This document shows positions 23,254-61,410 of a stretch of DNA of 64,000 bases, in pieces. This stretch comes from Pseudomonadota bacterium (GTDB lineage Bacteria > Pseudomonadota > Alphaproteobacteria > Micavibrionales > UBA2020). The stretch lies in assembly GCA_021849295.1 (NCBI GenBank), contig JAJZTA010000002.1:51989-115988 (forward strand), written 5' to 3'. The position numbers and the translations under genes were made by a program. The notes beneath the pieces are model-generated. The model saw nothing but the letters and a program-made list of their open reading frames with translations. It made no database searches and was not told the DNA's origin. How positions within the stretch are numbered: the stretch's first letter is position 1; every line of letters begins with the position of its first letter.

Positions 23254-24645
23254 ATGACTCCGTCCATCAAAGCACTCAACTTCTACCGCAACATCAAGGG
23301 CCGCTGGGCGCTGATGCTGTTTTTCTTCAAGTGGGACGCCGACTACCGCAAGGACCTGCTGACCACGATACTGACCTTCGTCGTGCTCATCTACGAGGTC
23401 GTCTCGTGGATGACGATCGCCGACATCATCGCCGCGATGGTCGACGCGGGCATCATCTACATCCAGCTCGGCGGCGACATGACCGTCATCCCCTCGGACT
23501 ACCGCCCTTCGCATGGCGGCGTGCCCTATACGACCGCGCTCAGCCACCACATCGCCTTTCACGAGCTGAGCGTCCCGATGGCCGAGGTGCTGCCCGCGCC
23601 GGTGGAGGACGAACTGGGCTTTTGCAATCCGGTCAACGCGATCAAGACCTGCAAGGAGAGCCCGCTGGTCAGCGACCGCGTCGACGACGCGCTGATGCTG
23701 CGCGAGAAAATGCCGTGGCGCGAGGACAACACGCCGATCAACTTCATCTTCTCGCGGCACCAATTGAGGTATATCGCCATCCGCGTGCTGAACAGGCTGC
23801 AGCACACCACCAACGGCAAGCTGCTGGCCTTTCAGGACATGGCGGACGCGATCGCCGATCCGGAGCGCACCGTCACCCTGCGCAAGGCCTATTATTACGA
23901 CGGGCTGATGACGGTGGAGGCCTTCCGCAGCCGCATCTTCCGCGGCAACCTGCAGCATGAGACGGAGGTCTTCACCGACCTCACCAGCTATTTTCCGGTG
24001 AACCGGGAGATGAAGGACGACGAGAGCTTTTTGCGCTTCCGCCCCGACATGCTGAAGCGCGCCTCGCTGCACATCGGCATCACCAGCCTCCTGCTGACCG
24101 AGAACAACCGCGTCGCCCTGCTCTATCAGGGCTCGACCAAGGCCGTGGGCGCGCACGAGGTCTGCCTCGGCGGCTCGGGCTCGCTCGAATACGCCGACAT
24201 CAAGCGCGCCGGCAACCCCGCCGATTTCCGCGAGCTGGCGGCCTGGGCCATGGCGCGCGAGGTCTGCGAGGAGACCGGCATGATGGAATCGATCGACGAG
24301 GCCTATGCCAACACCATCGTCACGGGCTTCTTCCGCTGGATCGACCGCTGCGGCCTGCCGGAGTTCGTCGGCCTGACGCGCGCCGGCACCGTGCCCTACG
24401 CGCAGGACCGCGCCATCGACGGCGACGAGGTCATCCACTTCGAGGAAGTGCCGATCAACGTCGACGGGCCGGAGGACTTCCCCGCCGTGATGGACTATAT
24501 CCGCACCAACGGCATCTGCGTCTCACTCTCCTCGCTCATGGCGCTGCACCGGATGACGGTGATCGCCGGCTACGGCGCGAAAGACGCCACCGACGAACAG
24601 AAGCAGATCTACCAGCGCGTCTCGAGCTTCATCAAGGGGCGCTAG
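23254..24645 (+). CDS. Hypothetical membrane-anchored protein with divergent Nudix-box C-terminal domain (paralog 1)
   Basis: 463 aa. Hydrophobic aa ~35-72. Conserved unassigned middle region. C-terminal HIGITSLLLTENNRVALLYQGS..CLGGSGSLE-[22 aa]-REVCEETGM (REUxEExGU half of the Nudix box at nt 24256..24282). Confidence 0.75.
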   Translation: MTPSIKALNFYRNIKGRWALMLFFFKWDADYRKDLLTTILTFVVLIYEVVSWMTIADIIAAMVDAGIIYIQLGGDMTVIPSDYRPSHGGVPYTTALSHHIAFHELSVPMAEVLPAPVEDELGFCNPVNAIKTCKESPLVSDRVDDALMLREKMPWREDNTPINFIFSRHQLRYIAIRVLNRLQHTTNGKLLAFQDMADAIADPERTVTLRKAYYYDGLMTVEAFRSRIFRGNLQHETEVFTDLTSYFPVNREMKDDESFLRFRPDMLKRASLHIGITSLLLTENNRVALLYQGSTKAVGAHEVCLGGSGSLEYADIKRAGNPADFRELAAWAMAREVCEETGMMESIDEAYANTIVTGFFRWIDRCGLPEFVGLTRAGTVPYAQDRAIDGDEVIHFEEVPINVDGPEDFPAVMDYIRTNGICVSLSSLMALHRMTVIAGYGAKDATDEQKQIYQRVSSFIKGR

Positions 24646-24648
24646 CCC

Positions 24649-26040
24649 ATGTCCCCGCTCGTCAAACTCCTCAACATCTACCGCAATCTCAAAGGCCGCT
24701 GGGAGCTGCTGGTGTTTTTCTTCAAATGGGACTCCGACTACCGCAAGGACCTCAACACCACCATCCTCACCTTCGGCGTGCTGTTTTACGAGATCTGGGC
24801 CTGGACCACGATCTACGACATCATCGCCGCCATCGTGGACGCGGGCATCATCGCCATCCAGCTCGGCGGCGACCTGACCGTCATTCCGTCCGACTACCGC
24901 CCGTCGCACCGCGGCATCCCCTATACGACGACCGTCAGCACGCACGTCTCGCACGACGAGCTGAGCATCCCGATGGCCGAAATCCTGCCCACGCCGGCGG
25001 AGGACGCGCTGGGCTTTTGCAATCCGGTCAATGCGGTCAAGACCTGCAACGACAGCCCGCTCTCCAGCGACCGCGTCGACGACGCGCTGATGCTGCGCGA
25101 AAAAATGCCGTGGCGCGAGAACGCGGAGCCGATGAGCTTCATCTATTCGCGGCACCAATTGAGGTATATCGCCATCCGCGTCCTCAACAAGCGCCAGCAC
25201 ACGACCAACGGCACGCTGCTGGCCTTTCAGGGCAGCGCCGCCGCGCTGGTGGACGAAACGCAGCCGCTCGCCGTGCGCAAGGCGCGCTATTTCGACAGCC
25301 TGCTGACGATGGAAGCCTTCCGCAGCCGCATCTTCCGCGGCAACCTGCAGCATGAAACCGAAGTCTACACCGACCTCACCACCTATTTTCCCGTGCACAG
25401 GGAGAGAACCGACGGCAGGCACTTCCTGCGCTTCCGGCCGGACTTCGCGACGCGCACCTCGCAGCATATCGGCATCACCAGCCTCCTGCTGACCGAGAAC
25501 AACCGCGTCGCGCTACTCTATCAGGGCTCGACCAACGCCATCGGCGCGAACATGGTCTGCCTCGGCGGCTCGGGCTCGATGTCCTACGCCGACATGGCGC
25601 GCGCGGGATCCCCGGAGGATTTCCGCGACCTGCTCGCCTACAGCATGGCGCGCGAGGTCTGCGAGGAGACCGGCATGAAGAAATGGTTCGACGAGATCCG
25701 CGCCAACACCATCGTCACCGGCTTCTTCCGCTGGATCGACCGCAGCGGCAAGCCGGAATTCATCGGCCTGACGCGCGCGGGCAAAGTGCCCTTCTCGAAA
25801 CAACGCTCCATCGACGGCGACGAGACCGTCCGCTTCGAGGAAGTGCCCGTGCCGGTGAACAGGCCCGAGGACTTCAAGGACGTGCTCGCCTACCTACTCG
25901 AGAACCACATCCACACCGCGCTCTCCTCGCTCATGGCGCTCTACCGGATGACGGTGATCGCGGACTACGGCGCGGAGAGCGCTACGGCGGAACAGAAAAA
26001 AATCTACCGGCGCGTCGCGGATTTTCTCGCCGGTAAATAG
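24649..26040 (+). CDS. Hypothetical membrane-anchored protein with divergent Nudix-box C-terminal domain (paralog 2)
   Basis: 463 aa. About 70% identical to paralog 1 by eye with no indels. Starts 3 nt after the paralog 1 stop. REVCEETGM at nt 25651..25677. Confidence 0.75.
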   Translation: MSPLVKLLNIYRNLKGRWELLVFFFKWDSDYRKDLNTTILTFGVLFYEIWAWTTIYDIIAAIVDAGIIAIQLGGDLTVIPSDYRPSHRGIPYTTTVSTHVSHDELSIPMAEILPTPAEDALGFCNPVNAVKTCNDSPLSSDRVDDALMLREKMPWRENAEPMSFIYSRHQLRYIAIRVLNKRQHTTNGTLLAFQGSAAALVDETQPLAVRKARYFDSLLTMEAFRSRIFRGNLQHETEVYTDLTTYFPVHRERTDGRHFLRFRPDFATRTSQHIGITSLLLTENNRVALLYQGSTNAIGANMVCLGGSGSMSYADMARAGSPEDFRDLLAYSMAREVCEETGMKKWFDEIRANTIVTGFFRWIDRSGKPEFIGLTRAGKVPFSKQRSIDGDETVRFEEVPVPVNRPEDFKDVLAYLLENHIHTALSSLMALYRMTVIADYGAESATAEQKKIYRRVADFLAGK

Positions 26041-26159
26041 CTTATATACCGGACATATTCGTTTCCATATCGCATTTACAAAAACATTGCGCCGCGCGGC
26101 TGATTTTGCTAATTTCCCTATTCATTCAAAATAAAGCCGCACACCAAGAAGGACACCTC

Positions 26160-26954
26160 ATGGGCATTTTCAAAGATTACTTCAAGATCGGCAAGACGGC
26201 GCCGCCGGAGGAATTCCTCAAGACCTACAAAAGCAAGGCGAAGAATACCGATTACAACAACAACGCCAGCGACATGATCGCCGGCGCGCTGAAAGCCTTC
26301 GGCGAAGGCCAGCCCACCAACGTGCAGGCCATCCTCTCCCATGTGCAGGAGCTGGAAAGCTACAACTACAGCAACATGGCCACGCGCGTCCTCAGCCAGC
26401 TGCCCGAAAAATTCGGCGGCAAGGACAAGGACCTCGAAATGGCGCTCGCCGAACTGCCGGAGAAGGACAGAAAGGATTTCCTCAGCAAGGCGCTCTATAC
26501 CGCCGTCAACTACCGCATCGGCGACGACAAGTTCTGCGAGCTGCTGCTGAAGGCGGGCGCGGACGCCAACTACGCCGTCGGCGGACACGCGGGCATCATG
26601 CTCGTGGTCGCCACCTGCAACCAGCAATCCATGAACGTGATCAAGCTGCTGCACGAACACGGCGCGAGCTTCGACGACGCGCTGATGACCATGCACTGCC
26701 AGAACAGAAGGAACGACGACATCGAACGCCTGAAGTTCTTCCAGCAAAAGCTGACCGGCGCCGCGGAGCAAAAGCCCGCCGGGCTGGCCTCGCCCGACCT
26801 GCAGTCGGACGACGTGCGCGTGCTGCTGGCGGAAATCCTCGAGCAGATGAAAGAAATCACCAAACGCCTGCCGCCCCTGCCGGAAGACCAACAGGACGCC
26901 GCGCAGCCGAAGATCAAAAAGCCGGATGTGGGCAAGGGGTATCCGAAGCTGTAA
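26160..26954 (+). CDS. Ankyrin-repeat-containing protein
   Basis: 264 aa from ATG 26160. LYTAVNYRIGDDKFCELLLKAGADANYAVGGHAGIMLVVATCNQQSMNVIKLLHEHGASFDDAL reads as two ANK repeats. No signal peptide. Confidence 0.6.
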   Translation: MGIFKDYFKIGKTAPPEEFLKTYKSKAKNTDYNNNASDMIAGALKAFGEGQPTNVQAILSHVQELESYNYSNMATRVLSQLPEKFGGKDKDLEMALAELPEKDRKDFLSKALYTAVNYRIGDDKFCELLLKAGADANYAVGGHAGIMLVVATCNQQSMNVIKLLHEHGASFDDALMTMHCQNRRNDDIERLKFFQQKLTGAAEQKPAGLASPDLQSDDVRVLLAEILEQMKEITKRLPPLPEDQQDAAQPKIKKPDVGKGYPKL

Positions 26955-27622: not shown

Positions 27623-27904
27623 TCAGCTGTTCACAGCTTCCTTCAGCTCTTTGCCGGGCGTGAACTTCACGCGGTTGGCGGCGGCGATCTTGATGGTTTC
27701 GCCGGTGCGCGGATTGCGGCCGGTGCTGGCGGCGCGGCGCGCGGTCTTGAACGTGCCGAAACCGACGAAGCGGGCTTCGCCGCCGTTCTTCAGTTCAGCG
27801 CCGATGCCTTCGAACGCGAGATCGACGATCTCGGTGATCTGCGTCTTGGAAATGTCGCTCTGGGCTTTGCTCGCAATGAAGTCGACGAGTTCGTTCTTGT
27901 TCAT
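27623..27904 (-). CDS. hupB: DNA-binding protein HU
   Basis: MNKNELVDFIASKAQ...FGTFKTARRAASTGRNPRTGETIKIAAANRVKFTPGKELKEAVN, the HU/IHF fold signature. Confidence 0.92.
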   Translation of the reverse strand: MNKNELVDFIASKAQSDISKTQITEIVDLAFEGIGAELKNGGEARFVGFGTFKTARRAASTGRNPRTGETIKIAAANRVKFTPGKELKEAVNS

Positions 27905-27966: not shown

Positions 27967-30387
<2,421 letters not shown>

Positions 30388-30538: not shown

Positions 30539-31174
30539 TTATGCGGCTTTCTTATCATTATTGTCGAAGGGCTGACGCTCGACGATTTGGTCGATCAGGC
30601 CGAAGGCCTTGGCGTCTTCCGCCGACATAAAGTTATCCCGTTCAAGGGCATCTTCGATGGCCTTGATCTTCTGGCCGGTGTGCTTGACATAGATGCCGTT
30701 CAAGCGGCGGCGCAGGCTCAGAATTTCCTTGGCCTGAATTTCGATATCGGTCGCCTGACCTTGCGCGCCGCCCGAGGGCTGGTGCACCATAATACGCGAA
30801 TTGGGCAGGCTGTAGCGCTTACCGGGGGCGCCCGCCGCCAGCAGCAGCGAACCCATCGAGCAGGCCTGCCCGATGCAGACCGTGGCGACGTCCGGCTTGA
30901 CATATTGCATGGTGTCGTACATGGCGAGGCCCGAGGTCACCACGCCGCCCGGAGAGTTGATATAAAGGTAAATGTCGCGCTTCGGGTTTTCAGATTCCAG
31001 AAACAGCAGCTGGGCGCAAATCAGCGCCGACATATGGTCTTCCACCTGCCCCGAGAGGAAGATGATCCGCTCCTTCAGCAGGCGCGAATAGATATCGTAG
31101 GAGCGCTCGCCGCGCGCCGTCTGTTCGATAACCATCGGTATCAGCAGGCTTGCCTGTTCTGGAATATGCGTCAT
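30539..31174 (-). CDS. clpP: ATP-dependent Clp protease proteolytic subunit
   Basis: Canonical ClpP ([50 protein letters not shown]). ATG at 31174 preferred over the upstream start at 31213. Confidence 0.93.
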
Positions 31175-31270
31175 AAGTCCCCCTGGGTCTAAAACTATAA
31201 AGTGACCGATCATCTCTGACCGGCCACTTTATATTAGCAAGCTTGAAAGGGTAGTTTAAAGGACTTTTTT

Positions 31271-32242
31271 TTACTGCCCGAAACGGCGCTGGGCAGGCTT
31301 GGTATCGTCGTTGGAAGCCTTGCTTGCCTTGGCTTCGGCAGCCTTGACAGCTTTCAGCTCTTCCGTCCAGAACTCGGGGCGCTGGGACAGTTCGACGATG
31401 GCTTCCGCGCGGCGGCGTTCGCCGATGCCGTCCTGGTCAGCCGTGCCGAGGAACATTTCTTTCAGTTCCGCCGTCGGCTTGCCGACAACGTCTGCGTCTC
31501 TCTTGTCCTGAGCGGCTTTGAGGAACGCATCCGCCGAAGCCTCGAACGGAGCTTTTTTGCCGCCATTCGCGCCTTCGTAGATTTTTTCGATGAAGCCCAT
31601 TTTCTTGGCTTGATCGGCCGTCAGCCAGGTGTCCTTGGCGCAGATCAGGTCCCAGAACTTTTCGTTCAGGCCGATGTGACGGATGTAAACAGCCTTCATG
31701 TCTTCGAACAGACGGCGTGTCACTTCGAGGCTGATTTCCTGTTCGGAAAGCTTGCCTTGCGTGCCGCTGGCGATCGAGTGGATCATGAGCTTCGCGTTTT
31801 TGGACATCATGCGCTTGTCGCCGCCGGCCATCAGGATCGAACCCATGGAGGCTTGCAGGCCAAGACCAACCGTCGTGATCGGTGCGCTGATCGAGCGCAT
31901 CACGTCATAGATCGCGGTGCCGTCGATGACGGAGCCGCCGGGGGAGTTGATCAGCATGTCGATGTTCTTGTCTTTGTCGTCGAACGCGAGGAAGCGCAGC
32001 TGGGCCATGACGACCGCGGCCATCGCCGGTTCAACCTGACCGTTCACCATCACGATGCGCTCTTTCAAAAGCAGCGAGAAGATATCGTAACCGGTGCCGT
32101 CTTTACCGCGCACGGAAGGAACCATGACGCCGGCAGCTTCCGCGGCCTTCGTTGCTTCGTCAATCATCTCGGGGGTGTAGACCGCCTTCATTTGGCGGAC
32201 CAGATCGGCGCGTTCTTGCTCTCTTGTAAAATCTTGTTTCAT
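31271..32242 (-). CDS. Atypical ClpP-family (S14) paralog with N- and C-terminal extensions
   Basis: 323 aa. ClpP core YDIFSLLLKERIVMVNGQV, GLQASMGSILMAGG (Ser kept), LMIHSIASG (His kept). Also a ~38-aa N-terminal and ~100-aa Ala/Glu/Lys-rich C-terminal extension. Confidence 0.75.
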   Translation of the reverse strand: MKQDFTREQERADLVRQMKAVYTPEMIDEATKAAEAAGVMVPSVRGKDGTGYDIFSLLLKERIVMVNGQVEPAMAAVVMAQLRFLAFDDKDKNIDMLINSPGGSVIDGTAIYDVMRSISAPITTVGLGLQASMGSILMAGGDKRMMSKNAKLMIHSIASGTQGKLSEQEISLEVTRRLFEDMKAVYIRHIGLNEKFWDLICAKDTWLTADQAKKMGFIEKIYEGANGGKKAPFEASADAFLKAAQDKRDADVVGKPTAELKEMFLGTADQDGIGERRRAEAIVELSQRPEFWTEELKAVKAAEAKASKASNDDTKPAQRRFGQ

Positions 32243-32333: not shown

Positions 32334-33719
32334 TTACTTTTCGTCATGACTTTTTGAAGCTTTTTTACTCGGCTTTTTTGCAGCATCCGCTTTCTTCGGC
32401 GACTCCTGCTCGGCAGCCTTCGTTAATTGCTCAATATCGACTTGACGTATTTCTATATTACAACTTTCCAGAACGAAGTCAACCACTTTGTCTTCGTAAA
32501 GTGGCGCCCGCAGCCCCTCGAGGGCTTGCTGATTTTGTTGATAGAATTCAAATACTTGGCGTTCCTTTCCAGGGTAGCGGCGGGCTTCGTTAATCACCGC
32601 CTGCTGCATTTCTTCGTTGGTGACTTCTATTTTATTGATTCGGCCGATTTCGGCGAGAACCAACCCCAGCTTGACGCGGCGGCCGGCGATATCGCGGTAT
32701 TCGGCTTTTTCCTCTTCGGAGCCGTGCTGGTGGTCGTGGCTGTGGTGGTGCTCGTGATCGTGCATCAGCTGGTTCCAGATGCCTTCGAATTCGGCTTCGA
32801 CCATGCCCGCGGGCACGGCGAAATCATGCGCTTCGTCGAGCGCGTCGAGCAGGCCGCGCTTCACGTTGACGCGCGCGATCTGGTCGTATTCGCTCTGCAT
32901 TTGCTTCTCGATGACTTCTTCCAGCTTGGAGAGGTCTTCGAAGCCCATGCTCTTGGCGAATTCGTCGTCGACCTTCGCTTCGGTGGGAGCGCGCAGTTCC
33001 TTCACGTCCACTTCAAACACCGCCGCAACGCCGCGCAGTTTTTCCTCGCCGTAATTTTCAGGGAAGGTCACCTTCACCGTTTTGTGGTCGCCGACCTTGG
33101 CGCCGACGAGCTGGTCTTCGAACGTGTCGATGAAGCTCTTGGAGCCGAGCTCGAGCGGGAAGCCCTCGCCCTTCATGCCGGGGAACGGTTTGCCGTCGAC
33201 CGTGCCGTCGAAGTCGATGACGAGGATGTCGCCGGTCTTCGCCGCGCGGTTTTCTTCAACCTTTTCGGAGCCTTTGTTGCCGGAGGCGATGCGCTTCAGC
33301 GTTTCCTTGACCGCCTTCGCGTCGGGCTTGGCGGTCAGCTTTTCCAGCTTGATGGACTTGAGGTCGGCCAGCTTGATTTCCGGCAGCAGCTCGACGGCCA
33401 TCGTGTATTCGAGGCCGTCTTTTTCGTCGAAGGTCTTCACTTCGATTTTCGGGCGCATGGCGGGGCGCAGTTCATTTTCGTTGATCGCCTTGATCGAGCT
33501 GTCGCTGACGGCGACTTCGAGCACCTCGCCCATCACGGCCTTGCCGTATTTCGATTTCAGCAGCGCGAGCGGCGCCTTGCCGGGGCGGAAGCCCGGAAGA
33601 TTGGCGGTCTTGCCGATTTCCTTCAGACGCTCGTTGATCTTCTCGTCGATCTCGGCGCCCGTCATCTTGACGGTGTATTCGTGCTTGAGGTCTTCTTTTT
33701 TTGTCTGTGTGATCTGCAT
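32334..33719 (-). CDS. tig: Trigger factor
   Basis: MQITQTKKEDLKHEYTVKM..., GFRPGKAP ribosome-binding motif, FKBP-type PPIase middle domain. Track ORF trimmed to ATG 33719. Confidence 0.92.
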   Translation of the reverse strand: MQITQTKKEDLKHEYTVKMTGAEIDEKINERLKEIGKTANLPGFRPGKAPLALLKSKYGKAVMGEVLEVAVSDSSIKAINENELRPAMRPKIEVKTFDEKDGLEYTMAVELLPEIKLADLKSIKLEKLTAKPDAKAVKETLKRIASGNKGSEKVEENRAAKTGDILVIDFDGTVDGKPFPGMKGEGFPLELGSKSFIDTFEDQLVGAKVGDHKTVKVTFPENYGEEKLRGVAAVFEVDVKELRAPTEAKVDDEFAKSMGFEDLSKLEEVIEKQMQSEYDQIARVNVKRGLLDALDEAHDFAVPAGMVEAEFEGIWNQLMHDHEHHHSHDHQHGSEEEKAEYRDIAGRRVKLGLVLAEIGRINKIEVTNEEMQQAVINEARRYPGKERQVFEFYQQNQQALEGLRAPLYEDKVVDFVLESCNIEIRQVDIEQLTKAAEQESPKKADAAKKPSKKASKSHDEK

Positions 33720-33794
33720 CGGAGTAGCCTTCTTCTCGGTTATATATAATGTCACTTCGCCTGCGGACTCGCGTCCGCATCCGGTGGGCATCTA

Positions 33795-33879
<85 letters not shown>

Positions 33880-38084: not shown

Positions 38085-39782
38085 TCACTTCTGCAGGACA
38101 TAAGTCCCCGGCGCGGCGCCGAAGCTGCCGTGGAAAGGCGGCGGCGCGATTTTGTCCTTCGCGGAATGGCGGCGCAGCCAGTCGTGCCATGCCGTCCACC
38201 ACGAGCCCTGTTCCTGCCGCGCCACGCCGCGCCACGCGTCAGGGTCGATGTAGCGGTCGCCGTGCTTTCTTTCATGCATATGATAGAAGCGGCCCTCGTG
38301 GCCCGGCTCGCTGACGATGCCCGCGTTATGGCCGCCGGAGGTCAGGACGAAGGTAACGTCGCCGTCGGTCATCATCTGCACTTTATAGACCGAGCGCCAC
38401 GGCGCGATGTGGTCTCTCTCCGTGCCGACGGCGAAAACGGGGACGCGAATGTCCTCCGCGGCGATCGACCGCCCTTCGACCTTGAAGCGGCCCTCGGCAA
38501 AGTCGTTGTGCAGGAAGAGCTTATCGAGATATTCGCCGTGCATCCTCGCGGGCATGCGCGTGGCATCGGCGTTCCAGGCCGTGAGGTCGAAGGCGTCGCG
38601 GCGCAGGCCTTTCAGGTAGTCGTTGACGGCTTTCGACCAGATGAGGTCGTAGGAACGCAGCATCTGGAAAGCGCCCGCCATGTGCCGCGTGTCGAGATAG
38701 CCCTGCACGTGCATCAGGTTTTTCAGGAAATCCACCTCGCTGTGGGTAACGAAAAGCTCCAGCTCTCCGGCCTCGGTGAAATCCCCCTGCGCGGCGAACA
38801 GCGACAGGCTGCGGAGACGGTTGTCGCCCCTTTGCGCCATCGCCGCGGCGGTGATCAGCGCCAGCGTGCCGCCGAGGCAATAGCCCGTCAGGTGGATTTT
38901 GGCATTCGGGCATTCCGCCGCAACCGCGTCCATCGCCGCCATGGCGCCGAGGCGGTAATAATCGTCCATGCCGAGACTGCGGTCTTCCGCGGAGGGGTTC
39001 TTCCACGACACCATGTAGACGGTATGCCCCTTTTCGACCAGCCATTTGACGAGAGAGTTGTGCGGCGACAAGTCGAGAATGTAATACTTCATGATCCACG
39101 CGGGCAGGATCAGGACAGGCTCCTTGTAGACGCTTTTCGTCTGGGGCGCGTAGCGGATCAGCTCGATCAGGCCGTTGCGCAAGACCACTTCGCCCGGCGT
39201 GACGGCCAGATTGACGCCGACGCTGAATTTTTCGTCCTCTGCGTCCGGCGTGCCGCCGATCATGTGGCGGAAATCGTGCCAGGCGTTTTGCGTGCCGCGC
39301 AAAAGGTTGATGCCGCCGCTGTTCAGGGTCACCGCCGCCAGTTCCGGATTGGTGGCGGGGAAGTTGGCGGGGCACAGCGCGTCCATGACCTGCCGCGCCG
39401 CGAAGGACACGAAGCGCTCCTCGTGGTCCTCGAGGCCGGAGACGCCGGTGGTCGCCTGCCGCCACCATTCCTCGACATAAAGAAAGCTTTCGGCGTAAAA
39501 CCGCCACGGCCAGCGGTCCCATTTTTCGGACTTGAAGCGCGGGTCCACCGCGCAGGTCTCTCCGCGCACGCAGGTCATGCGGTGGATGAAGCCCGGCGTG
39601 TGCAACAGGGGATAGATCGCCAGATCCAGCATCTTGCCCGGCGATTGCGCGAGATGGCTGGCCCAGGCGAAATACGACGACGCGACCCCCGCCGGGCTCA
39701 TGCCCAGCGTGAGCGGCGCCAGTGCGGCCTGCCAGCAGGTATCCATTTCCCTCAGGTAAGGGCTGATGACTTTGTTGTCCAT
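38085..39782 (-). CDS. phaC: Class I poly(3-hydroxyalkanoate) synthase
   Basis: Lipase-box GYCLGGTLA with catalytic Cys, alpha/beta-hydrolase core. ATG 39782 with a GGGAGG RBS is preferred over TTG 39839. Confidence 0.88.
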   Translation of the reverse strand: MDNKVISPYLREMDTCWQAALAPLTLGMSPAGVASSYFAWASHLAQSPGKMLDLAIYPLLHTPGFIHRMTCVRGETCAVDPRFKSEKWDRWPWRFYAESFLYVEEWWRQATTGVSGLEDHEERFVSFAARQVMDALCPANFPATNPELAAVTLNSGGINLLRGTQNAWHDFRHMIGGTPDAEDEKFSVGVNLAVTPGEVVLRNGLIELIRYAPQTKSVYKEPVLILPAWIMKYYILDLSPHNSLVKWLVEKGHTVYMVSWKNPSAEDRSLGMDDYYRLGAMAAMDAVAAECPNAKIHLTGYCLGGTLALITAAAMAQRGDNRLRSLSLFAAQGDFTEAGELELFVTHSEVDFLKNLMHVQGYLDTRHMAGAFQMLRSYDLIWSKAVNDYLKGLRRDAFDLTAWNADATRMPARMHGEYLDKLFLHNDFAEGRFKVEGRSIAAEDIRVPVFAVGTERDHIAPWRSVYKVQMMTDGDVTFVLTSGGHNAGIVSEPGHEGRFYHMHERKHGDRYIDPDAWRGVARQEQGSWWTAWHDWLRRHSAKDKIAPPPFHGSFGAAPGTYVLQK

Positions 39783-39927
39783 TTTCGCCTCCCGCGCAGG
39801 AAACCATATTCCGCGGCGCGGCGCATTGACGTCCGTCAAAAAAAATATTTTTCTCTCCTCTGATAAAAGTCAATTTATTCCGCCTCCGTCTGCCGCATGC
39901 TGGCACAAACCATGCGAAGGATGAGTC

Positions 39928-41268
39928 ATGAAGCCTTTGAATCCGGATCACCCGATCGTCGCCGCCGTTGGCAGGGAAGCCTTTCCTTTCGCCACGGATC
40001 TCGACTTCGACCCTCTTGTCGCGGCCGCCGCGGACAAGGAGATCGTGATGATCGGCGAGTCGACGCACGGCACCAAGGAATTCTACCGCCTGCGCGCGCA
40101 GATCACGCAGCGGCTGATCGTCGAGCACGGCTTCGACACCGTGGCCGTGGAGGCCGACTGGCCGGACGCCTACACCATCCACCGCTACGTCTGCGGCCAG
40201 TCCGAAGACGTGAGCGCCGACGAGGCGCTGAACGATTTCGAAAGGTTCCCCACATGGATGTGGCGCAACCGCGAGGTCCAGCATTTCGTGGAATGGCTGC
40301 GCGCCCACAACATCGACCGCCCGCAGCCGGTCGGCTTCTACGGGCTCGACCTTTACAGCATGAACACCTCGATGCACGCCGTCGTCGCCTACCTCAACAG
40401 GGTCGACCCCTTGAGCGCGCACCGCGCGCGGCAGCGCTACGCCTGCCTTGACCATTTCATGGACCATCCGCAGTCCTACGGCTACGCCACGGAAATGGGC
40501 ATGATCGAATCCTGCGAAAAGCAGATCGTGGAGCAGATCGAGGAGCTGCACCGCAAATCCTGGGCCTATCTGCAGCACAACGGCGGAGCGGTCGAGGAAG
40601 AATATTTCTCCGCAAAACAGAACGCGCAGCTGGTGCACGCGGCCGAACAATACTACCGCGCCCTTTTCCGCGGCCGGCCGGACTCGTGGAACCTGCGCGA
40701 CAAGCACATGTTTTCGACGCTCGGACAGCTGATGGAACACCGCAGCAAGCGGCTCAAACGCAAGTCGAAAACGGTCGTCTGGGCGCACAACTCGCACGTC
40801 GGCAACGCCTCCGCGACCGAGATGGCCTTGCGTGGCGAATACAATATCGGGCAGCTGGTGCGCGCCAGCCACGACGCAGGCGCCCTGCTGGTCGGGTTCT
40901 CGACCTGCCGCGGCACGGTCAGGGCATCCTCCGACTGGGACGCGCCCGACGAGGTGAAAAACATCGTGGAGCCGCTCGCCGGCAGCTACGAGCAGATTTT
41001 CAACCATGTGGGCGGAGGAAAATTCTTTCTCGATTTGCGCGCGGACAACACGGCCACCGACATGCTGCAGGAACACCGCCTGCTGCGCGCCATCGGCGTC
41101 GTCTACAAGCCGGAGACGGAAAGATACAGCCATTACGTCTATTCCTGCCTGCCCAAGCAGTTCGACTTCATCATCCATCTCAACCACACCACGGCCGTGG
41201 AGCCGATCGAAACCATTCCCCACATCCACCACGGCGAGATGGACGAAACCTATCCCAGCGGCATGTAA
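39928..41268 (+). CDS. Erythromycin-esterase-family protein (Ere/ChaN-like)
   Basis: 446 aa. IVMIGESTHGTKEFYRLRAQITQRLIVEHGFDTVAVEADWPDAY and WAHNSHVG motifs typical of PF05139. Confidence 0.75.
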   Translation: MKPLNPDHPIVAAVGREAFPFATDLDFDPLVAAAADKEIVMIGESTHGTKEFYRLRAQITQRLIVEHGFDTVAVEADWPDAYTIHRYVCGQSEDVSADEALNDFERFPTWMWRNREVQHFVEWLRAHNIDRPQPVGFYGLDLYSMNTSMHAVVAYLNRVDPLSAHRARQRYACLDHFMDHPQSYGYATEMGMIESCEKQIVEQIEELHRKSWAYLQHNGGAVEEEYFSAKQNAQLVHAAEQYYRALFRGRPDSWNLRDKHMFSTLGQLMEHRSKRLKRKSKTVVWAHNSHVGNASATEMALRGEYNIGQLVRASHDAGALLVGFSTCRGTVRASSDWDAPDEVKNIVEPLAGSYEQIFNHVGGGKFFLDLRADNTATDMLQEHRLLRAIGVVYKPETERYSHYVYSCLPKQFDFIIHLNHTTAVEPIETIPHIHHGEMDETYPSGM

Positions 41269-42383: not shown

Positions 42384-42475
42384 TTTTTATTTTCTTGACG
42401 TCCATCAGATCAAAGACGGGCGATTTGTGCTCTGCTGTTTCCGATCATCAACAACCCAACCTCAAGGAGAACATC

Positions 42476-42979
42476 ATGACAATACGCAGTCTGATAAACT
42501 GGGACCGCCCTTTCGGCGTTCCCGTCCGCCGCAGCGGAGACTTCTTTCCGTCCTTTTCGGCGCTGCAGGAGGACATGAACAACCTGCTGGAAAGATTTTA
42601 CAAAGGCTCGGACGTGTACCTGACCAACTGGGACAATGTCACGGCCTCTCCGGCGGTGAACATCGCCGAGAACGATAAATCCTTCCGCATCGAAGCCGAA
42701 CTGCCGGGCATGCCGCCGGAAGCGGTCGACGTTTCCGTCACCGACGGCTATCTGACCATCAAGGGCGAGCGCAAGGAGGAAAATGAGGAGAAAGACGTCG
42801 ACTACATCCGCCGCGAATACTCCGCCTCCACCTTCTACCGGCAAATTCCCCTGCCCGATGCGGCCAACGCCGACAAGGCCGAGGCCTCTTTCAAAAACGG
42901 CATCCTGACGGTCACGTTCCCGAAGAAAGCCGAAGCCGTGCAGCACGCGCGGAAATTGCAAATCAAAAAAGCCGCCTGA
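42476..42979 (+). CDS. Small heat-shock protein (Hsp20/alpha-crystallin)
   Basis: AVNIAENDKSFRIEAELPGMPPEAVDVSVTDGYLTIKGER...ASFKNGILTVTFPK. AAGGAGA RBS 6 nt upstream of ATG 42476. Confidence 0.9.
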   Translation: MTIRSLINWDRPFGVPVRRSGDFFPSFSALQEDMNNLLERFYKGSDVYLTNWDNVTASPAVNIAENDKSFRIEAELPGMPPEAVDVSVTDGYLTIKGERKEENEEKDVDYIRREYSASTFYRQIPLPDAANADKAEASFKNGILTVTFPKKAEAVQHARKLQIKKAA

Positions 42980-43046: not shown

Positions 43047-43553
43047 ATGCAGATAACGGGAAGACTGGCAGAGGAAACCCCGCAAAACATAGACCGGCCG
43101 CGCCTGTCGGCCCGCCATCATAAAATCGTCCGCGTCTGGATCGTCGTGGCCGACGACCATGTGGCCAAGGTCTTCAGAAAAAACGGCAAGCGGCTCGAAT
43201 GTCTCGGGCTGGCCATGCCCGAGAAAACCGCGCCGCCGACCAACAAATCCGTCGGCCGCGTTTTCAGCTCCTTTCAAGGCACAATCCATCACAAATACGA
43301 GCCGCACGTCACCAGACGGCACCGGCAGAACATCTCCTTCACGCGCGAGCTGGCGCAGTGGCTGGAAAAGACCTTCGACGACGGCGCCTTCGACAAGCTC
43401 ATCATCGCCGCAGCGCCGCGCACGCTCGGCAACCTGCGCAAGGCCTCCGGCAAAAGCCTGCAAGCCGCCATCATCTCCGAAATCAACAAGGACCTGACCG
43501 GACACCCCGAGGACTCCTTGCGCAAGGAGCTGTTAAAAACGGCCGCACGCTAG
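43047..43553 (+). CDS. Host-attachment-family protein (PF10116-like)
   Basis: VWIVVADDHVAKVFRKNG...LIIAAAPRTLGNLRKA...EINKDLTGHPEDSLRKEL resembles the family pattern. Assigned from memory only. Confidence 0.45.
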   Translation: MQITGRLAEETPQNIDRPRLSARHHKIVRVWIVVADDHVAKVFRKNGKRLECLGLAMPEKTAPPTNKSVGRVFSSFQGTIHHKYEPHVTRRHRQNISFTRELAQWLEKTFDDGAFDKLIIAAAPRTLGNLRKASGKSLQAAIISEINKDLTGHPEDSLRKELLKTAAR

Positions 43554-52985: not shown

Positions 52986-55900
52986 ATGCCAAGCAGCACT
53001 TTCAACTCGGATAACTTTAACCTGACAGACTGGGACCTGACACTGCCCGTGGACAGCACAGGCGGCACGACCGGCACGGCGAACACCGTCTATTCTCTGG
53101 TCGACTACACATCCCCCTATTTCTACAGCAACGCGGACGGCTCGATGACGTTCTCCGCACCGGTCGCCGGCGCGACGGCGGGCGCCAGCACGTTCGGCGC
53201 GGGCGCGGGCCTCAACGAACAGGGTACCGCGGGCTGGACGCTCGCCACCGGCGGCGGCACGATGTCGGCGACGCTCGCGGTCAACAGCGTTCCCACCCTG
53301 ACGGGCGGCGCGGAAGGCAGCGTCATCATCGGACAGGCGATGGTCGAGAACTCGAACGAGGCGCTGATCCAGATTTACTACGACGCCGGAAACATTTACT
53401 TCAGAAACACCCTTTACAACGGGCGTCAGGACACATACCAGTTCCACGACGCGGCGGGAAACACGCCCTCCATCGGGCTCGACCAGAAATTCTCCTATTC
53501 GATCGACGCGCACGGCAGCACGCTGACGGCGAAAATCTACATCGGCGGAGATGTCTACACGTCGACGACGCCGATCGATTCGAGCTGGAGCGCGCTGCCG
53601 CTCTACTTCAAGGCGGGCGCCTTTGACGGAGACGCGAGCGTGTCCGGCGGCAACCTGCCGCAGGCGACGGGCACGGGACAGGCGACGTTCTACGGCCTCG
53701 ACATGAGCCATATCGCGGGCAGCGGCCTCGGCGGCATTCAGGCGCCGGTCGCGGCGCCGGACAGCTTCACCGGCACGGCGGACCACGTCATCACCGGCAA
53801 CGTGCTGGCGAACGACACCGGCCCCGCAGGATTGACTTTAAGCGTCGCGCCGGAAACGCAGACGACCGCGCACGGCTCCGTCACGGTCAACGCCGACGGC
53901 ACCTTCGCTTACACGCCCACGACGGGCTACAACGGCGCGGACAGCTTCGCCTACACGCTGAAAGACGGCTCCGGCCTCACGGCGGCCGGCGACGTGCACC
54001 TCACCGTCGGCACGCCCACCGGCCTGCCGCCCGTCGCCAATCCCGACAGCTTCACCGGTACGGAAAACCAGCCCATCACCGGCAACGTGCTGACGAACGA
54101 TACGGATCCAGCCGGCCTCGCTTTAAGCGTCGCGCCTGCCACGCTGACGACGGCGCACGGCTCGGTGGTCGAGAACGCCAACGGCACCTTCACCTACACG
54201 CCGGCAACGGGGTATGTAGGGACGGATTCTTTTAATTACACGCTGCATGACAGCGCGGGACTCACGGCGACCGGCACGGTCAATGTGTCCATGACGCCGG
54301 CCACGACATCGACGGCGCCATCGGGATATTCGCTGGTGTTCGCGCCGAGCTTTGACACGCTCAGTCTCGAATCCTCCACAAACAAAGGCGGCACCTGGGA
54401 CACGACCTTCCCCTATTCGACGCCGGGATCGGCCAGCTTCAGCGGCCGCACCCTTTCCTCCAACCACGAGGCGGAGTTTTATTCCGACCCGACCGTCGGC
54501 GTCAATCCGTTCTCGGTCAGCAACGGCGTGCTGACGATCACGGCGGCCAAGGCCACCTCGCAGATGCTGCAGACGGAAGCCGCGGCGAACGGCGGCGCGA
54601 CGCTGCCCTACACGTCAGGCCTGCTCACCACCTACACGAGCTTCGCGCAGACTTACGGCCTCTATGAAATCACCGCGAAGATGCCCGCGGGGCAAGGCCT
54701 GTGGCCCGCGCTATGGATGCTGCCGGCCAGCCAGGCCTGGCCGCCGGAGATCGACCTGCTCGAGGAGATCGGCAATCTGCCGACCACCGATTACATGACG
54801 CTCCACTCCAAAACCAACGGCACCACCGGAATCACCAGTCAGGTCGACATGACGACGGGGTTCCACACCTATTCCGTCGACTGGGAGCCGAAGACCATGA
54901 CGTTCTACATCGACGGAAAGCAGGTCGGCCAGATGGCCACGCCTGCCGACATGAACCAGCCGATGTATCTGCTGATGAACCTCGCGGTCGGCGGCACGGG
55001 CAGCTGGCCGGGCGCGCCGAACAGTTCGACCGTGTTCCCCGCCCAGATGCAGGTCAGCTCGGTGCAGGTCTATGCCTCGCCGAACACCATCGCGGATTAT
55101 AACCACGTCGGCGTGCAGACAACCACTGCGCCGACCCCGACGCCGACGCCGACGCCAACTCCGACGCCGACACCAACTCCGACGCCGACACCAACTCCGA
55201 CTCCGGCGCCGACAACCTCAAACCTGCCGCCCGTCGCCAATCCGGACAGTTTCTCCGGCACGGAAAACCACCCCATCACAGGCAACGTGATGGCCAATGA
55301 CACCGATCCAAACGGCCTGACTTTAAGCGTCGATCCCGGCACGTTCGCCACCACGAAGGGCGGCGTTCTGCAGATAGCCTCCGACGGCAGCTTCACCTAC
55401 ACGCCGGCGACGGGATTTACGGGGACGGACAAGGTTTACTATACGCTGGCCGACAGCGCTGGCCTGAAATCAAGCGGTCTGGTGACGCTGAACGTCGGAA
55501 CATCGCAAAACCCGCCCGTGGCAAACCCCGACAGCTTCACCGGCACGGAAAATCACGTCGTCACCGGCAACGTGATGGCGAACGACACCGACCCGAACGG
55601 CCTTGCTTTAAGCGTCACCGCAGGCACCTTTGCCACCGCGCACGGCGGCAGCGTTGTCCTGAACGCCGACGGCACGTTCACCTATACACCCGCGGCAAAC
55701 TATTCCGGCACCGACAGCTTTACCTATACGCTGAACGACACCGCGGGGCTCACGGCGGCAGGAACGGCGACGATCGCCATCACCGCGCCGCTCAGCCCGC
55801 CCGTCGCCAATCCGGACAGCTTCACCGGCACGGAAAATCACGTCGTCACCGGCAACGTGATGGCCAACGACACCGATCCGAACGGCCTGGCTTTAAGCGT

Positions 55901-57311
55901 CACCGCCGCCACTTTGACGACGGCGCACGGCGGCACGGTCGTAACAAACGCCGACGGCACGTTTACCTACACGCCCGCGGCAAACTACGCCGGTCCCGAC
56001 AGCTTTACCTATACGCTGAACGACACCGCGGGGCTCACCGCCACCGGCACGGCGACCCTCGCCATCGAAGCGCCGCCCGTGGCCGCGCCGGACAATTTCA
56101 CCGGCACGGAAAACCACGTCGTCACCGGCAACGTGATGACCAACGACACCGACCCGAACGGCCTTGCCTTGAGCGTCACCGCCGCCACTTTGACGACGGC
56201 GCACGGCGGCACGGTCGTGACGAACGCCGACGGCACCTTCACCTATACGCCGGCGGCGAACTTCATTGGCACGGACAGCTTCAACTATACGCTGAACGAC
56301 ACCGCGGGGCTCACGTCCACCGGCACGGCGACGCTGGTCATCGACGGGCCGCCCGTGGCCGCGCCGGACAGCTTCACCGGCACGGAGAACCACGTCGTCA
56401 CCGGCAACGTGATGGCCAACGACACCGATCCGAACGGCCTCGCCTTAAGCGTCACCGCCGCCACTTTGACGACGGCGCACGGCGGCACGGTCGTAACGAA
56501 CGCCGACGGCACCTTCGCCTATACGCCCGCGGCAAACTTCACCGGCACGGACAGCTTCAACTATACGCTGCACGACACCGCCGGGCTCTCGGCCACCGGA
56601 ACGGCGACGCTTACCATAGACGCGCCGCCCCCCGCGCTCCCGCCCGCCGATCCGGTCGCGCACACCGACCTCTGGACGGGCATGGAAAACCTGCCGATGT
56701 TCGGCAACGTACTGACCAATAACGGCCTCGGCGCAGATACGGACCCGAACGGCCTTGCCTTGAGCCTCACGCCAGCCACCCTGACGACGGCGCACGGCGC
56801 AGCCGTCACGGAGGCCAGCGACGGCACCTTCACCTACATACCGAAGACAGGCTTCATCGGCACCGACAGCTTCAACTATACGCTGAACGACAGCGCGGGG
56901 CATACGGCGACCGGCACGGTGGACGTCACCATAGGGCCTTCTCCCACGCAGGGAGAAACCATCACCTTCGGGTATGGCAGCAGCATGCTCTTCGGCGCTT
57001 CGGGCGGACACGATACGTTCGTCTTCAACGCCGCCAACCTCGGCACCGGTACCGACACCATCAGGGGCTTCTCCACGACGAACGGCGATGTCATCAACAT
57101 TTCCAATGTCCTCGCCGGACATTACAACCCCGCGGCGAGCGCGGCGGTGTCGAACTTCGTCAACGTCGTGACCAGCGGCCACAACAGCGTCGTGGAGGTC
57201 GACCTCTCGGGACATGCGGGCGCTTCCGGCTGGGCGCAGGTGGCCACGATCTTCAGCGAGCCGAATCTCGACGCGCAAACGCTCATCAATCACGGCAATC
57301 TGGTTGTGTAA
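52986..57311 (+). CDS. 1441-aa secreted multidomain glycanase/adhesin: PL7-like domain, 2 repeats, GH16 domain, PT linker, 6 repeats, type I secretion C-terminal target domain
   Basis: No signal peptide. N-terminus NLTDWDLTLPVD...IIGQAMVEN...LYFKAGAFDGD (alginate-lyase-2/PL7 pattern). GH16 catalytic EIDLLE at nt 54747..54764. Eight PVANPDSFTGTENHVVTGNVMANDTDPNGLALSV..DGTFTYTP..DSFTYTL units. C-terminus GGHDTFVF..GTDTIRGFSTTNGDVINISNVL, resembling the VCA0849-type T1SS signal. Confidence 0.9.
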   Translation: MPSSTFNSDNFNLTDWDLTLPVDSTGGTTGTANTVYSLVDYTSPYFYSNADGSMTFSAPVAGATAGASTFGAGAGLNEQGTAGWTLATGGGTMSATLAVNSVPTLTGGAEGSVIIGQAMVENSNEALIQIYYDAGNIYFRNTLYNGRQDTYQFHDAAGNTPSIGLDQKFSYSIDAHGSTLTAKIYIGGDVYTSTTPIDSSWSALPLYFKAGAFDGDASVSGGNLPQATGTGQATFYGLDMSHIAGSGLGGIQAPVAAPDSFTGTADHVITGNVLANDTGPAGLTLSVAPETQTTAHGSVTVNADGTFAYTPTTGYNGADSFAYTLKDGSGLTAAGDVHLTVGTPTGLPPVANPDSFTGTENQPITGNVLTNDTDPAGLALSVAPATLTTAHGSVVENANGTFTYTPATGYVGTDSFNYTLHDSAGLTATGTVNVSMTPATTSTAPSGYSLVFAPSFDTLSLESSTNKGGTWDTTFPYSTPGSASFSGRTLSSNHEAEFYSDPTVGVNPFSVSNGVLTITAAKATSQMLQTEAAANGGATLPYTSGLLTTYTSFAQTYGLYEITAKMPAGQGLWPALWMLPASQAWPPEIDLLEEIGNLPTTDYMTLHSKTNGTTGITSQVDMTTGFHTYSVDWEPKTMTFYIDGKQVGQMATPADMNQPMYLLMNLAVGGTGSWPGAPNSSTVFPAQMQVSSVQVYASPNTIADYNHVGVQTTTAPTPTPTPTPTPTPTPTPTPTPTPTPAPTTSNLPPVANPDSFSGTENHPITGNVMANDTDPNGLTLSVDPGTFATTKGGVLQIASDGSFTYTPATGFTGTDKVYYTLADSAGLKSSGLVTLNVGTSQNPPVANPDSFTGTENHVVTGNVMANDTDPNGLALSVTAGTFATAHGGSVVLNADGTFTYTPAANYSGTDSFTYTLNDTAGLTAAGTATIAITAPLSPPVANPDSFTGTENHVVTGNVMANDTDPNGLALSVTAATLTTAHGGTVVTNADGTFTYTPAANYAGPDSFTYTLNDTAGLTATGTATLAIEAPPVAAPDNFTGTENHVVTGNVMTNDTDPNGLALSVTAATLTTAHGGTVVTNADGTFTYTPAANFIGTDSFNYTLNDTAGLTSTGTATLVIDGPPVAAPDSFTGTENHVVTGNVMANDTDPNGLALSVTAATLTTAHGGTVVTNADGTFAYTPAANFTGTDSFNYTLHDTAGLSATGTATLTIDAPPPALPPADPVAHTDLWTGMENLPMFGNVLTNNGLGADTDPNGLALSLTPATLTTAHGAAVTEASDGTFTYIPKTGFIGTDSFNYTLNDSAGHTATGTVDVTIGPSPTQGETITFGYGSSMLFGASGGHDTFVFNAANLGTGTDTIRGFSTTNGDVINISNVLAGHYNPAASAAVSNFVNVVTSGHNSVVEVDLSGHAGASGWAQVATIFSEPNLDAQTLINHGNLVV
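53745..54296 (+). repeat. Two coding tandem ~95-aa cadherin/Ig-like repeats (copies 1-2)
   Basis: Units start at nt 53745 and 54030. Confidence 0.85.
55128..55214 (+). repeat. Coding (Thr-Pro)12 linker microsatellite-like repeat
   Basis: gcg ccg (acN ccN)x12 gcg ccg encodes AP(TP)12AP. Confidence 0.95.
55230..56939 (+). repeat. Six coding tandem ~92-100-aa repeats (copies 3-8); copies 4-7 are near-identical at DNA level
   Basis: Unit starts at nt 55230, 55515, 55800, 56076, 56352 and 56652, giving periods of 285, 285, 276, 276 and 300 bp. Confidence 0.9.
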
Positions 57312-58231: not shown

Positions 58232-58363
58232 AGCGCCCTCCATCGGCTTGTCCTGCACACAAACGCTTGCAGAAAAGGAACGTTCCTTGCGCGGCAGCGT
58301 TTAGAAAGATGGACGCTCAGCCGTTCGGATGAGCGGCGCACCCCCGAAAGGAGACGCAAAAGG

Positions 58364-59230: not shown

Positions 59231-59242
59231 AACCTTAGCGCT

Positions 59243-60001: not shown

Positions 60002-60007
60002 GTGTTT

Positions 60008-61258: not shown

Positions 61259-61410
61259 TGTTTTGATGATTGAGCGATGGAAACGCTACAAACTTATCAA
61301 CGCATTATCAAATGAAATATTTTTTTATCTGCATGGAACCGCGCGGCGCGCACAGCGTTATATCCAGTCGAATACCCCGAAAAAATCATGCGAGAAGCGG
61401 CAGGCATTTC

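Follow-up and report, generated by a model that had tools for sequence, protein, structure and literature searches.

A divergent ClpP paralog with a family-specific C-terminal domain, encoded between tig and clpP in uncultured relatives of Micavibrio

The window analysed here, a stretch of 64,000 nt from an alphaproteobacterium of the order Micavibrionales (GTDB UBA2020; assembly GCA_021849295.1, contig JAJZTA010000002.1, positions 51,989 to 115,988), encodes two members of the ClpP family next to each other. The minus strand carries, in this order, tRNA-Leu, tig, a long clpP paralog, a canonical clpP, lon, hupB and two tRNA-Val genes (Table 1). A second ClpP-family gene between tig and clpP had been proposed from the letters and open reading frames (ORFs) of the window (the original prediction), and a complete ORF at that place confirmed it. 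The product, called the long ClpP below, was found as an identical 323-aa protein on four independent contigs from three sources (ENA, NCBI and Logan samples) and is therefore not an assembly artefact; the second clpP gene in the window is genuine and selectively maintained. The canonical neighbour scored above the NCBIfam cutoffs for ClpP (343.8 bits with PRK00277 and 323 bits with TIGR00493). In most alphaproteobacteria, clpX occupies the slot after clpP that is taken by lon here. The 91-nt spacer between tig and long clpP was AT-rich and contained no hairpin or minus-strand terminator-like site, and thus tig and long clpP are probably co-transcribed.

Table 1. Features of the long clpP locus (residue numbers are those of the long ClpP)
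Feature	Residues	Position in window	Strand	Remarks
tRNA-Leu		33795-33879	(-)	
tig (trigger factor)		32334..33791	(-)	Pfam Trigger_N, FKBP_C and Trigger_C; directly upstream of long clpP
Long ClpP paralog gene		31271..32242	(-)	complete coding sequence including stop codon, 323 aa; Pfam CLP_protease match
N-terminal extension	1-40	32123..32242	(-)	predicted two helices
ClpP (S14) core	41-225	31568..32122	(-)	includes the axial-loop and helix A region VPSV...GYDIFSLLLKERIV
Catalytic Ser132, codon TCC	132	31847..31849	(-)	in GLQASMGS; aligns with E. coli S97; 111/111
Catalytic His155, codon CAC	155	31778..31780	(-)	in LMIHSIASG; aligns with E. coli H122; 111/111
Catalytic Asp204, codon GAC	204	31631..31633	(-)	in AKDTWLTADQA; aligns with E. 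coli D171
C-terminal helical domain	226-308	31319..31567	(-)	family-specific
Disordered tail	309-323 and stop	31271..31318	(-)	ASNDD (31304-31318), then basic TKPAQRRFGQ
GC-rich hairpin and T-tract		31196..31233	(-)	17-bp stem; in the spacer between long clpP and canonical clpP
Canonical clpP		30539..31174	(-)	211 aa; start Met after a GGGGGA ribosome-binding site; likely partner subunit
lon		27967..30387	(-)	Pfam domains; directly after clpP
hupB		27623-27904	(-)	after lon

The central part of the long ClpP was recognised by the Pfam CLP_protease profile (PF00574) over residues 50-223 with 154.7 bits (cutoff 20.2, E = 3e-45). When the model was compared to canonical ClpP structures with Foldseek, most of the top hits had a target-normalised template-modelling (TM) score of 0.92-0.95 with E ~1e-20 and a root-mean-square deviation of ~1.0-1.7 Å over ~185-195 columns. 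A sequence search of the PDB aligned residues ~40-227 alone; the top 60 matches were named generic ClpP or mitochondrial CLPP only, and no sequence or structure match in the PDB extended past residue ~227. The protein fell below every NCBIfam ClpP cutoff (160.8 bits against 249 for PRK00277 and 139.2 against 308.6 for TIGR00493). It shared 36% identity over 209 residues with the adjacent canonical ClpP and 36-44% with canonical ClpPs in general. By fold, hidden Markov model (HMM) and catalytic triad the long ClpP is thus a divergent member of the ClpP/S14 family and not the housekeeping equivalog.

The S14 core, the strings holding Ser and His, and a candidate Asp, all noted in the original prediction, were borne out by alignment to E. 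coli S97, H122 and D171. Residue counts over the family were made with 111 members. In these, the Asp position was occupied by D in 97, N in 7, E in 6 and G in one, and the equivalents of the oxyanion-hole residues Gly68 and Met98 were invariant. The ring-ring sensor residues (R170 and D134 equivalents) were conserved, which is compatible with stacking of rings but is not proof of it. The cellular-type N-terminal segment VP.V...GYD.FS.LLK.RI was retained, with the axial loop three residues shorter in about half of the family, the window protein included. A search with PADLOC matched the long ClpP to no defence-system model.

Beyond the core, the window protein continued for ~98 residues (A 18%, K 11%, E 10%), and the length of this C-terminal extension was near-constant across the family, with a median of 107 aa and an interquartile range of 102-111. 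The length and composition agreed with the Ala/Glu/Lys-rich tail of ~100 aa that had been described earlier, but the extension is not of low complexity: it consists of conserved, folded helices, with disorder limited to the ~15 terminal residues. In the full-length model (mean predicted local distance difference test score (pLDDT) 92, predicted TM score 0.83), residues ~234-309 formed five helices with pLDDT >90, and the extension modelled alone had a mean pLDDT of 85.8. Conserved residues R278, L285, W292 and T293 were found within the stretch R-P-E-L-v-x-a-L-S-Q-F-P-E-F-W-T. A profile of the C-terminal part gave 26 matches among 1.84 billion representative proteins, 25 of which were long ClpPs or fragments of them, and the remaining one was a marginal match to an unrelated repeat protein. 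Searched alone, the extension had no significant match in Pfam, PHROG, PDB or BFVD (viral structures). As judged from these searches and the models, the C-terminal part is a predicted orphan folded domain confined to the long-ClpP family.

The tail following this domain was modelled with a pLDDT of 64-72. It contained the motif [A/S]-N-D-[D/N] in 95 of the 111 members, with NQN or NNN variants in 10 more, and in an alignment of 45 sequences the Asn of the motif was invariant in an otherwise variable region. After the motif came a median of 17 residues that were rich in A, K and P and carried a net charge of +1 to +9, and the terminus read [G/A]-P-x(1-4) in 80/111 members. At the other end of the protein, the helical N-terminal extension of ~38 aa that had been noted before was found as ~40 residues, in which AlphaFold2 predicted helices at residues 2-21 and 24-36 (pLDDT 68-78). 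Its length varied from 0 to 137 aa across the family, with a median of 43, and it had no Pfam match. The extension is translated, because Met1 was at least 90% conserved across the family and the ratio of nonsynonymous to synonymous substitution rates (dN/dS), computed against orthologues of 95-70% identity, was 0.08-0.26 for this segment.

The strongest functional clue came from the comparison of sequences at the hydrophobic ATPase-docking pocket on the apical surface, which has been lost in the long ClpP. We took the residues that bind the IGF/LGF loops of ClpX/ClpA to be E. coli Y60, Y62, F82, I90, M92, F112, L114 and L189, on the basis of complexes with acyldepsipeptides (ADEP) and ClpX, and compared 20 distinct partner ClpPs with the long family in E. 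coli numbering. Y60 was Y or F in the partners, T, K, Q or D in the long family and D in the window protein; Y62 was Y in the partners, L, Y or H in the long family and L in the window protein; and F82 was Y in the partners, S, E or Q in the long family and S in the window protein. The corresponding residues were I, N/V/Y and L at M92, Y/F, K/M/Y and M at F112, and L, T/A and S at L114. At I90 and L189 the long-family consensus was I, with V and Y, respectively, in the window protein. The consensus of the long family over the eight positions was T, L, S, I, N, K, T, I. The aromatic and hydrophobic set was thus kept in 20/20 partner ClpPs, whereas the long family had mostly polar or small replacements, and therefore only the neighbour should be able to dock IGF/LGF loops.

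In a search space of 5.8 billion proteins, the long-ClpP family comprised about 110 clusters at 90% identity, with lengths of 266-433 aa. All came from metagenomes or metagenome-assembled genomes (MAGs) labelled Alphaproteobacteria, Rhodospirillales, Micavibrio sp. or plain Proteobacteria, and their public names were generic or 'hypothetical'. A literature search found nothing specific on a ClpP with such extensions or on Micavibrio Clp biology. Scanning a single genome for each GTDB species gave 24 loci, and in these and in the metagenome contigs tRNA-Leu, tig, long clpP, clpP, lon and hupB were present in every locus with enough sequence, with a gap of 0-1.6 kb between clpP and lon. Identity to the window across the loci was 83-97% for the canonical ClpP, 73-96% for Lon and 63-93% for Tig, and fell to 41-46% for the long ClpP. 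In some genomes the long gene was present as a tandem pair, with a member from each of the two main subclades (of 323 aa and 365 aa, for instance), so that three ClpP-family genes followed one another. Examples were the JGI contig of P0016/P0029 and the pair L020 and L018 (MAG D1_MAG_00043), both with the long paralogs upstream of the canonical clpP.

A neighbour-joining tree of the core alignment showed the long family to be monophyletic, with a mean tip depth ~6 times that of the partner ClpP clade. Its sister group in the tree was a set of 198-aa ClpPs, namely the canonical ClpPs encoded next to tig in an unrelated lineage that evolves fast. This placement probably results from long-branch attraction; the identity of the long family was 42% to the 198-aa group and likewise 42% to the partner ClpPs. 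The long clpP is under purifying selection, with a dN/dS of 0.09-0.19 for the whole gene and 0.10-0.13 for the C-terminal domain, compared to 0.025-0.04 for the canonical clpP.

The 111-nt region between long clpP and clpP folded at -37 kcal/mol (z = -4.0). A hairpin was found in 21/21 loci checked, at a distance of 2-74 nt before the start of the canonical clpP, and its stem sequences differed between lineages yet remained complementary. It was preceded by a conserved CTTGCTA(A/T)(T/G)AT box (window and L004-L031) and matched no Rfam family. The hairpin is probably a terminator or attenuator of the tig-long clpP transcript that overlaps the clpP promoter region, and this arrangement suggests that tig and long clpP form one transcription unit while clpP is controlled separately.

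A missing clpX had been part of the original prediction, and tblastn with E. coli ClpX found only a weak match to the AAA module of Lon in the 64-kb window, and likewise up to a distance of 10 kb in the related loci. The gene table of Micavibrio aeruginosavorus ARL-13 lists HU (GMV_1380), Lon (GMV_1381), a ClpP gene of 651 nt (GMV_1382) and trigger factor (GMV_1383) consecutively, and ClpX as GMV_1482, ~100 genes from this tig-clpP-lon-HU locus, which has neither clpX nor the long gene (PMC3189940 supplementary file 4). The clpX-less operon is therefore older than long clpP, or can at any rate occur without that gene, so the suggested connection between the long ClpP and the missing clpX was weakened. 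The absence of clpX from the operon is a lineage trait, and in the cultured relative ClpX was relocated and not lost. The conserved docking pocket of the canonical partners argues for a retained IGF-loop ATPase, and the presence of ClpX in the lineage is supported by this pocket together with the M. aeruginosavorus gene table. In the same table, ClpX GMV_1482 adjoins GMV_1483, a 963-nt 'putative uncharacterized protein' gene with a length near that of the long ClpP (PMC3189940 supplementary file 4). M. aeruginosavorus was absent from the matches of the GTDB motif scan. One subclade of the long-clpP loci had an extra ORF of 202-242 aa between clpP and lon, i.e. in the usual clpX slot (L006/L007, 11894-12622, with equivalent gaps in L012, L015, L022, L024, L026-L028 and L030). 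Its product begins with a hydrophobic, signal-peptide-like segment and has no Pfam domain; ClpX was rejected as its identity, with zero similarity between the two.

From its sequence, we give about an even chance to the long ClpP being a catalytically competent, lineage-specific accessory proteolytic subunit of the ClpP2 type. The reading is built on the intact triad, the strict adjacency to the canonical clpP, and a pocket that is lost in the long ClpP but kept in its neighbour. By analogy with Pseudomonas aeruginosa ClpP1(7)P2(7) or M. tuberculosis ClpP1P2, one heptameric ring of long subunits would stack on one ring of canonical ClpP, and the unfoldase ClpX, encoded elsewhere in the genome, would dock on the canonical face only. 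The C-terminus of ClpP emerges on the apical surface beside the docking pocket, as exemplified by the extension of human CLPP. Seven C-terminal domains, and N-terminal extensions emerging from the pore, would therefore lie on the ATPase-free face. These appendages may decorate or cap that face, and a cap could alter gating, the release of products or the recruitment of another factor. If the tig-long clpP transcript ends at the hairpin, the stoichiometry of the two subunits could be regulated separately. In Pseudomonas aeruginosa, ClpP2 alone forms inactive heptamers and ClpP1(7)P2(7) is only singly capped by ClpX (PMC13056064). The partner of ClpP1/ClpP2 type with altered gating that had been put forward from the letters is thus the best fit to the triad, the adjacency and the pocket loss, but it is unproven.

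Several observations weigh against this reading. We infer the formation of hetero-rings from adjacency and analogy alone, and where the C-terminal domain would sit in the oligomer, and any role it may have in gating or recruitment, are likewise predictions. Conservation calculated by segment showed that the handle region, where rings contact each other, was no more partner-like than the rest of the core, and it revealed no signature of co-adaptation. The tandem long paralogs in some genomes imply that the assembly may exceed a 7+7 arrangement in complexity, and with a conserved hairpin between the genes, long clpP and clpP need not be co-expressed. No clpX was located by tblastn in the window and the related loci. 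Finally, M. aeruginosavorus lacks the long gene, so that it is dispensable in a related organism.

Compared to the canonical bacterial ClpPs (MEROPS S14; E. coli, S. aureus and Francisella), the long ClpP has the same fold, the same triad, the VP.V and YD.(F/Y)S.LLK.RI segments and the R170/D134 positions, but it differs in the replaced pocket residues, the shorter axial loop and the extensions of ~40 aa at the N-terminus and ~100 aa at the C-terminus, the latter being absent from every solved ClpP. The atypical second ClpPs, such as P. aeruginosa ClpP2 (PMC13056064), M. tuberculosis ClpP1P2, Chlamydia ClpP1/ClpP2 (PMC9823225) and Streptomyces ClpP1P2 (bioRxiv 10.1101/2022.05.13.490424), form hetero-tetradecamers and likewise are divergent, triad-bearing paralogs beside a canonical ClpP; of the known systems, these are the ones that the long ClpP would resemble most in its mode of action. 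In P. aeruginosa ClpP1/ClpP2, ClpX caps one face only, and the long ClpP is likewise predicted to be unable to dock an unfoldase. In contrast to these proteins, the long family has no orthology to their clades, its gene lies between tig and clpP, and its C-terminal domain is unique. A search for a well-described ClpP2 clade with the same extensions found none, and the long family was monophyletic on its own.

Deletion of the C-terminal extension of human CLPP raises the affinity for ClpX. This extension of 28 residues lies near the ATPase-docking surface of the mitochondrial enzyme (PDB 1TG6), to which the core of the long ClpP aligned with E = 7e-31. The human extension is short and largely unstructured, whereas that of the long ClpP has ~100 aa and five predicted helices, and the two share no sequence similarity. 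The long ClpP differs from every described ClpP by a conserved C-terminal domain of ~100 aa with a motif-bearing tail.

The same pocket loss could instead mean that the long ClpP is a stand-alone, ATPase-independent peptidase, a homo-oligomer (heptamer or tetradecamer) whose own appendages serve as a cap or antechamber that controls the entry of peptides and unfolded proteins. We regard this as unlikely, although several observations speak for it. The conserved folded C-terminal domain and the N-terminal extension would sit on the face where the ATPase would bind, the hairpin suggests expression apart from clpP, and the fast evolution of the long ClpP is decoupled from that of the almost invariant canonical ClpP. 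The strict adjacency to clpP in every locus is, however, explained more simply by a shared complex, and the appendages have no homologues and show no sign of unfolding or substrate-binding activity. No atypical ClpP paralog studied to date is known to be active alone; M. tuberculosis ClpP1 and ClpP2 are inactive by themselves, and so is P. aeruginosa ClpP2 (PMC13056064).

A further explanation concerns the tail, which might be a built-in ssrA-like signal where [A/S]-N-D-[D/N] mimics the start of the ssrA tags of Proteobacteria, to which SspB binds, and the basic end acts as a weak MuA-like degron for ClpX. It could either tether SspB and ClpX in place of the lost pocket or set the level of the protein through SspB-dependent degradation by ClpXP, and both variants can coexist with an accessory ClpP2-like subunit. 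We consider the mimicry rather improbable, and equally so the joint form with the orphan C-terminal domain as a crown on the ATPase-free face and the tail as an adaptor-like appendage. The prevalence of the motif (95/111), its invariant Asn, its median distance of 17 residues from the C-terminus and the basic, A/K/P-rich sequence after it fit such a signal. The ssrA tag of Caulobacter is AANDNFAEEFAVAA, with SspB as its adaptor (PMC9393093), and in degrons of the MuA type, positive residues occur at variable spacing (PMC13056064). The likeness is, however, limited to four residues and was noted post hoc, the tails have no LAA-type ends, and the tail of the window protein is short (ASNDDTKPAQRRFGQ). 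Moreover, ARAGORN found no transfer-messenger RNA gene in the window or the loci, and tblastn with E. coli SspB gave no match there; tblastn with E. coli ClpS was likewise negative in the window and the loci.

The original prediction had also considered a domesticated, phage-derived ClpP-like prohead protease with C-terminal helices from a scaffolding domain, which we now find highly improbable. Phage head-maturation proteases (NF045542; PHROG 94, 2976 and 1684) do share the S14 core and have helical sequence after the protease domain, and the long ClpP matched phrog_94 with E = 4e-44 in an alignment to residue 300 and the NCBIfam model Clp_rel_HeadMat with 99.9 bits. The canonical neighbour matched the same PHROG and NCBIfam phage models similarly (88.2 bits on NF045542), and the score of the long ClpP was below the NF045542 cutoff of 120 and below that of the cellular ClpP models (161 bits). 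The continuation of the PHROG alignment to residue ~300 was dismissed as an extension of the HMM through helical sequence, since the C-terminal extension alone gave no significant match. The matches in IMG/VR were limited to three weak ones, each confined to the end of the core; these lay no nearer to the long ClpP (72-82 bits) than to the canonical ClpP (60-74 bits), and no relative with the C-terminal extension was found there. The long ClpP also keeps the cellular N-terminal VP.V...YD.FS.LLK.RI region and has an extension with no counterpart in PHROG, BFVD or IMG/VR. No phage genes, those for portal, capsid or terminase included, were found in the window, and the chromosomal synteny was conserved in 24 loci.

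A catalytically dead structural subunit like ClpR, which in cyanobacteria and plastids is also a divergent extra subunit of the core complex but lacks the triad, is very improbable: the core evolves fast and 14/111 members have N, E or G for the catalytic Asp, but Ser and His were found in 111/111, the oxyanion-hole equivalents do not vary, and a check for triad substitutions found the full Ser132-His155-Asp204 set in the window protein, which is therefore not ClpR-like.

Gated proteolysis is modelled on ClpP cores, which are also targets for drugs. To our knowledge, the known second ClpPs of M. tuberculosis, P. aeruginosa, Chlamydia, Listeria and Streptomyces differ from the canonical form mainly by point changes. 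The long family would represent a different evolutionary route, in which the docking pocket was lost, a folded domain was gained on the same face and a linear motif was placed in a flexible tail. Should the C-terminal domain act as a cap or gate on the free face, or bring in a partner, the long ClpP would be part of a natural asymmetric ClpP regulated by appendages and could offer a handle for the engineering of singly capped proteases. If it is merely another ClpP2-like subunit, the gain is a modest improvement of annotation. If the ssrA mimicry were true, it would be a coupling of the peptidase core to tagging and adaptors of an undescribed kind. Micavibrio is a predator, and the long family is a marker of a clade among its uncultured relatives, in which the remodelling of the protease might be connected to lifestyle.

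Other genes in the window were noted in passing. Tig has a His-rich insert at residues ~345-362 (MHDHEHHHSHDHQHG; window 32334-33791, minus strand). Such an insert is uncommon in Tig, and metal binding is a possible function. Inserted between tRNA-Asp and tRNA-Val are two tandem paralogs of 463 aa (23254-24645 and 24649-26040, both on the plus strand) that are 70% identical. Both have a hydrophobic segment at the N-terminus and a Nudix-box-like motif, REVCEETG, and the ORF after them (26106-26954, plus strand) encodes 282 aa. None of the three had a Pfam match and PADLOC gave only a weak match for the 282-aa ORF (E = 7e-4); in related genomes 1-3.5 kb lies between the two tRNA genes. Downstream of tRNA-Asp, a long co-directional run of genes extends over 1240-22361 on the minus strand. 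Its part nearest to tRNA-Asp is probably the nuo (NADH dehydrogenase) operon, judged by synteny only (in related loci, nuoA/nuoB Pfam domains follow tRNA-Asp), and since the distal ORF at 1240-1908 encodes an ABC-transporter ATPase, the operon is shorter than the whole run. A plus-strand gene at 52986-57311 encodes 1441 aa with an alginate-lyase domain, a GH16 domain and eight Big_9/cadherin-like repeats. The protein is a candidate secreted adhesin that degrades polysaccharides, and its gene adjoins polysaccharide-synthesis genes (57569-63308). An HSP20 small heat-shock gene (42395-42979, plus strand) is followed by a gene of the 'Host_attach'/baeRF family 12, which is release-factor-like (43047-43553, plus strand). 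The neighbours on the other side of the long clpP locus include a PHB synthase gene (38085-39839) and a gene of the erythromycin-esterase family (39928-41268).

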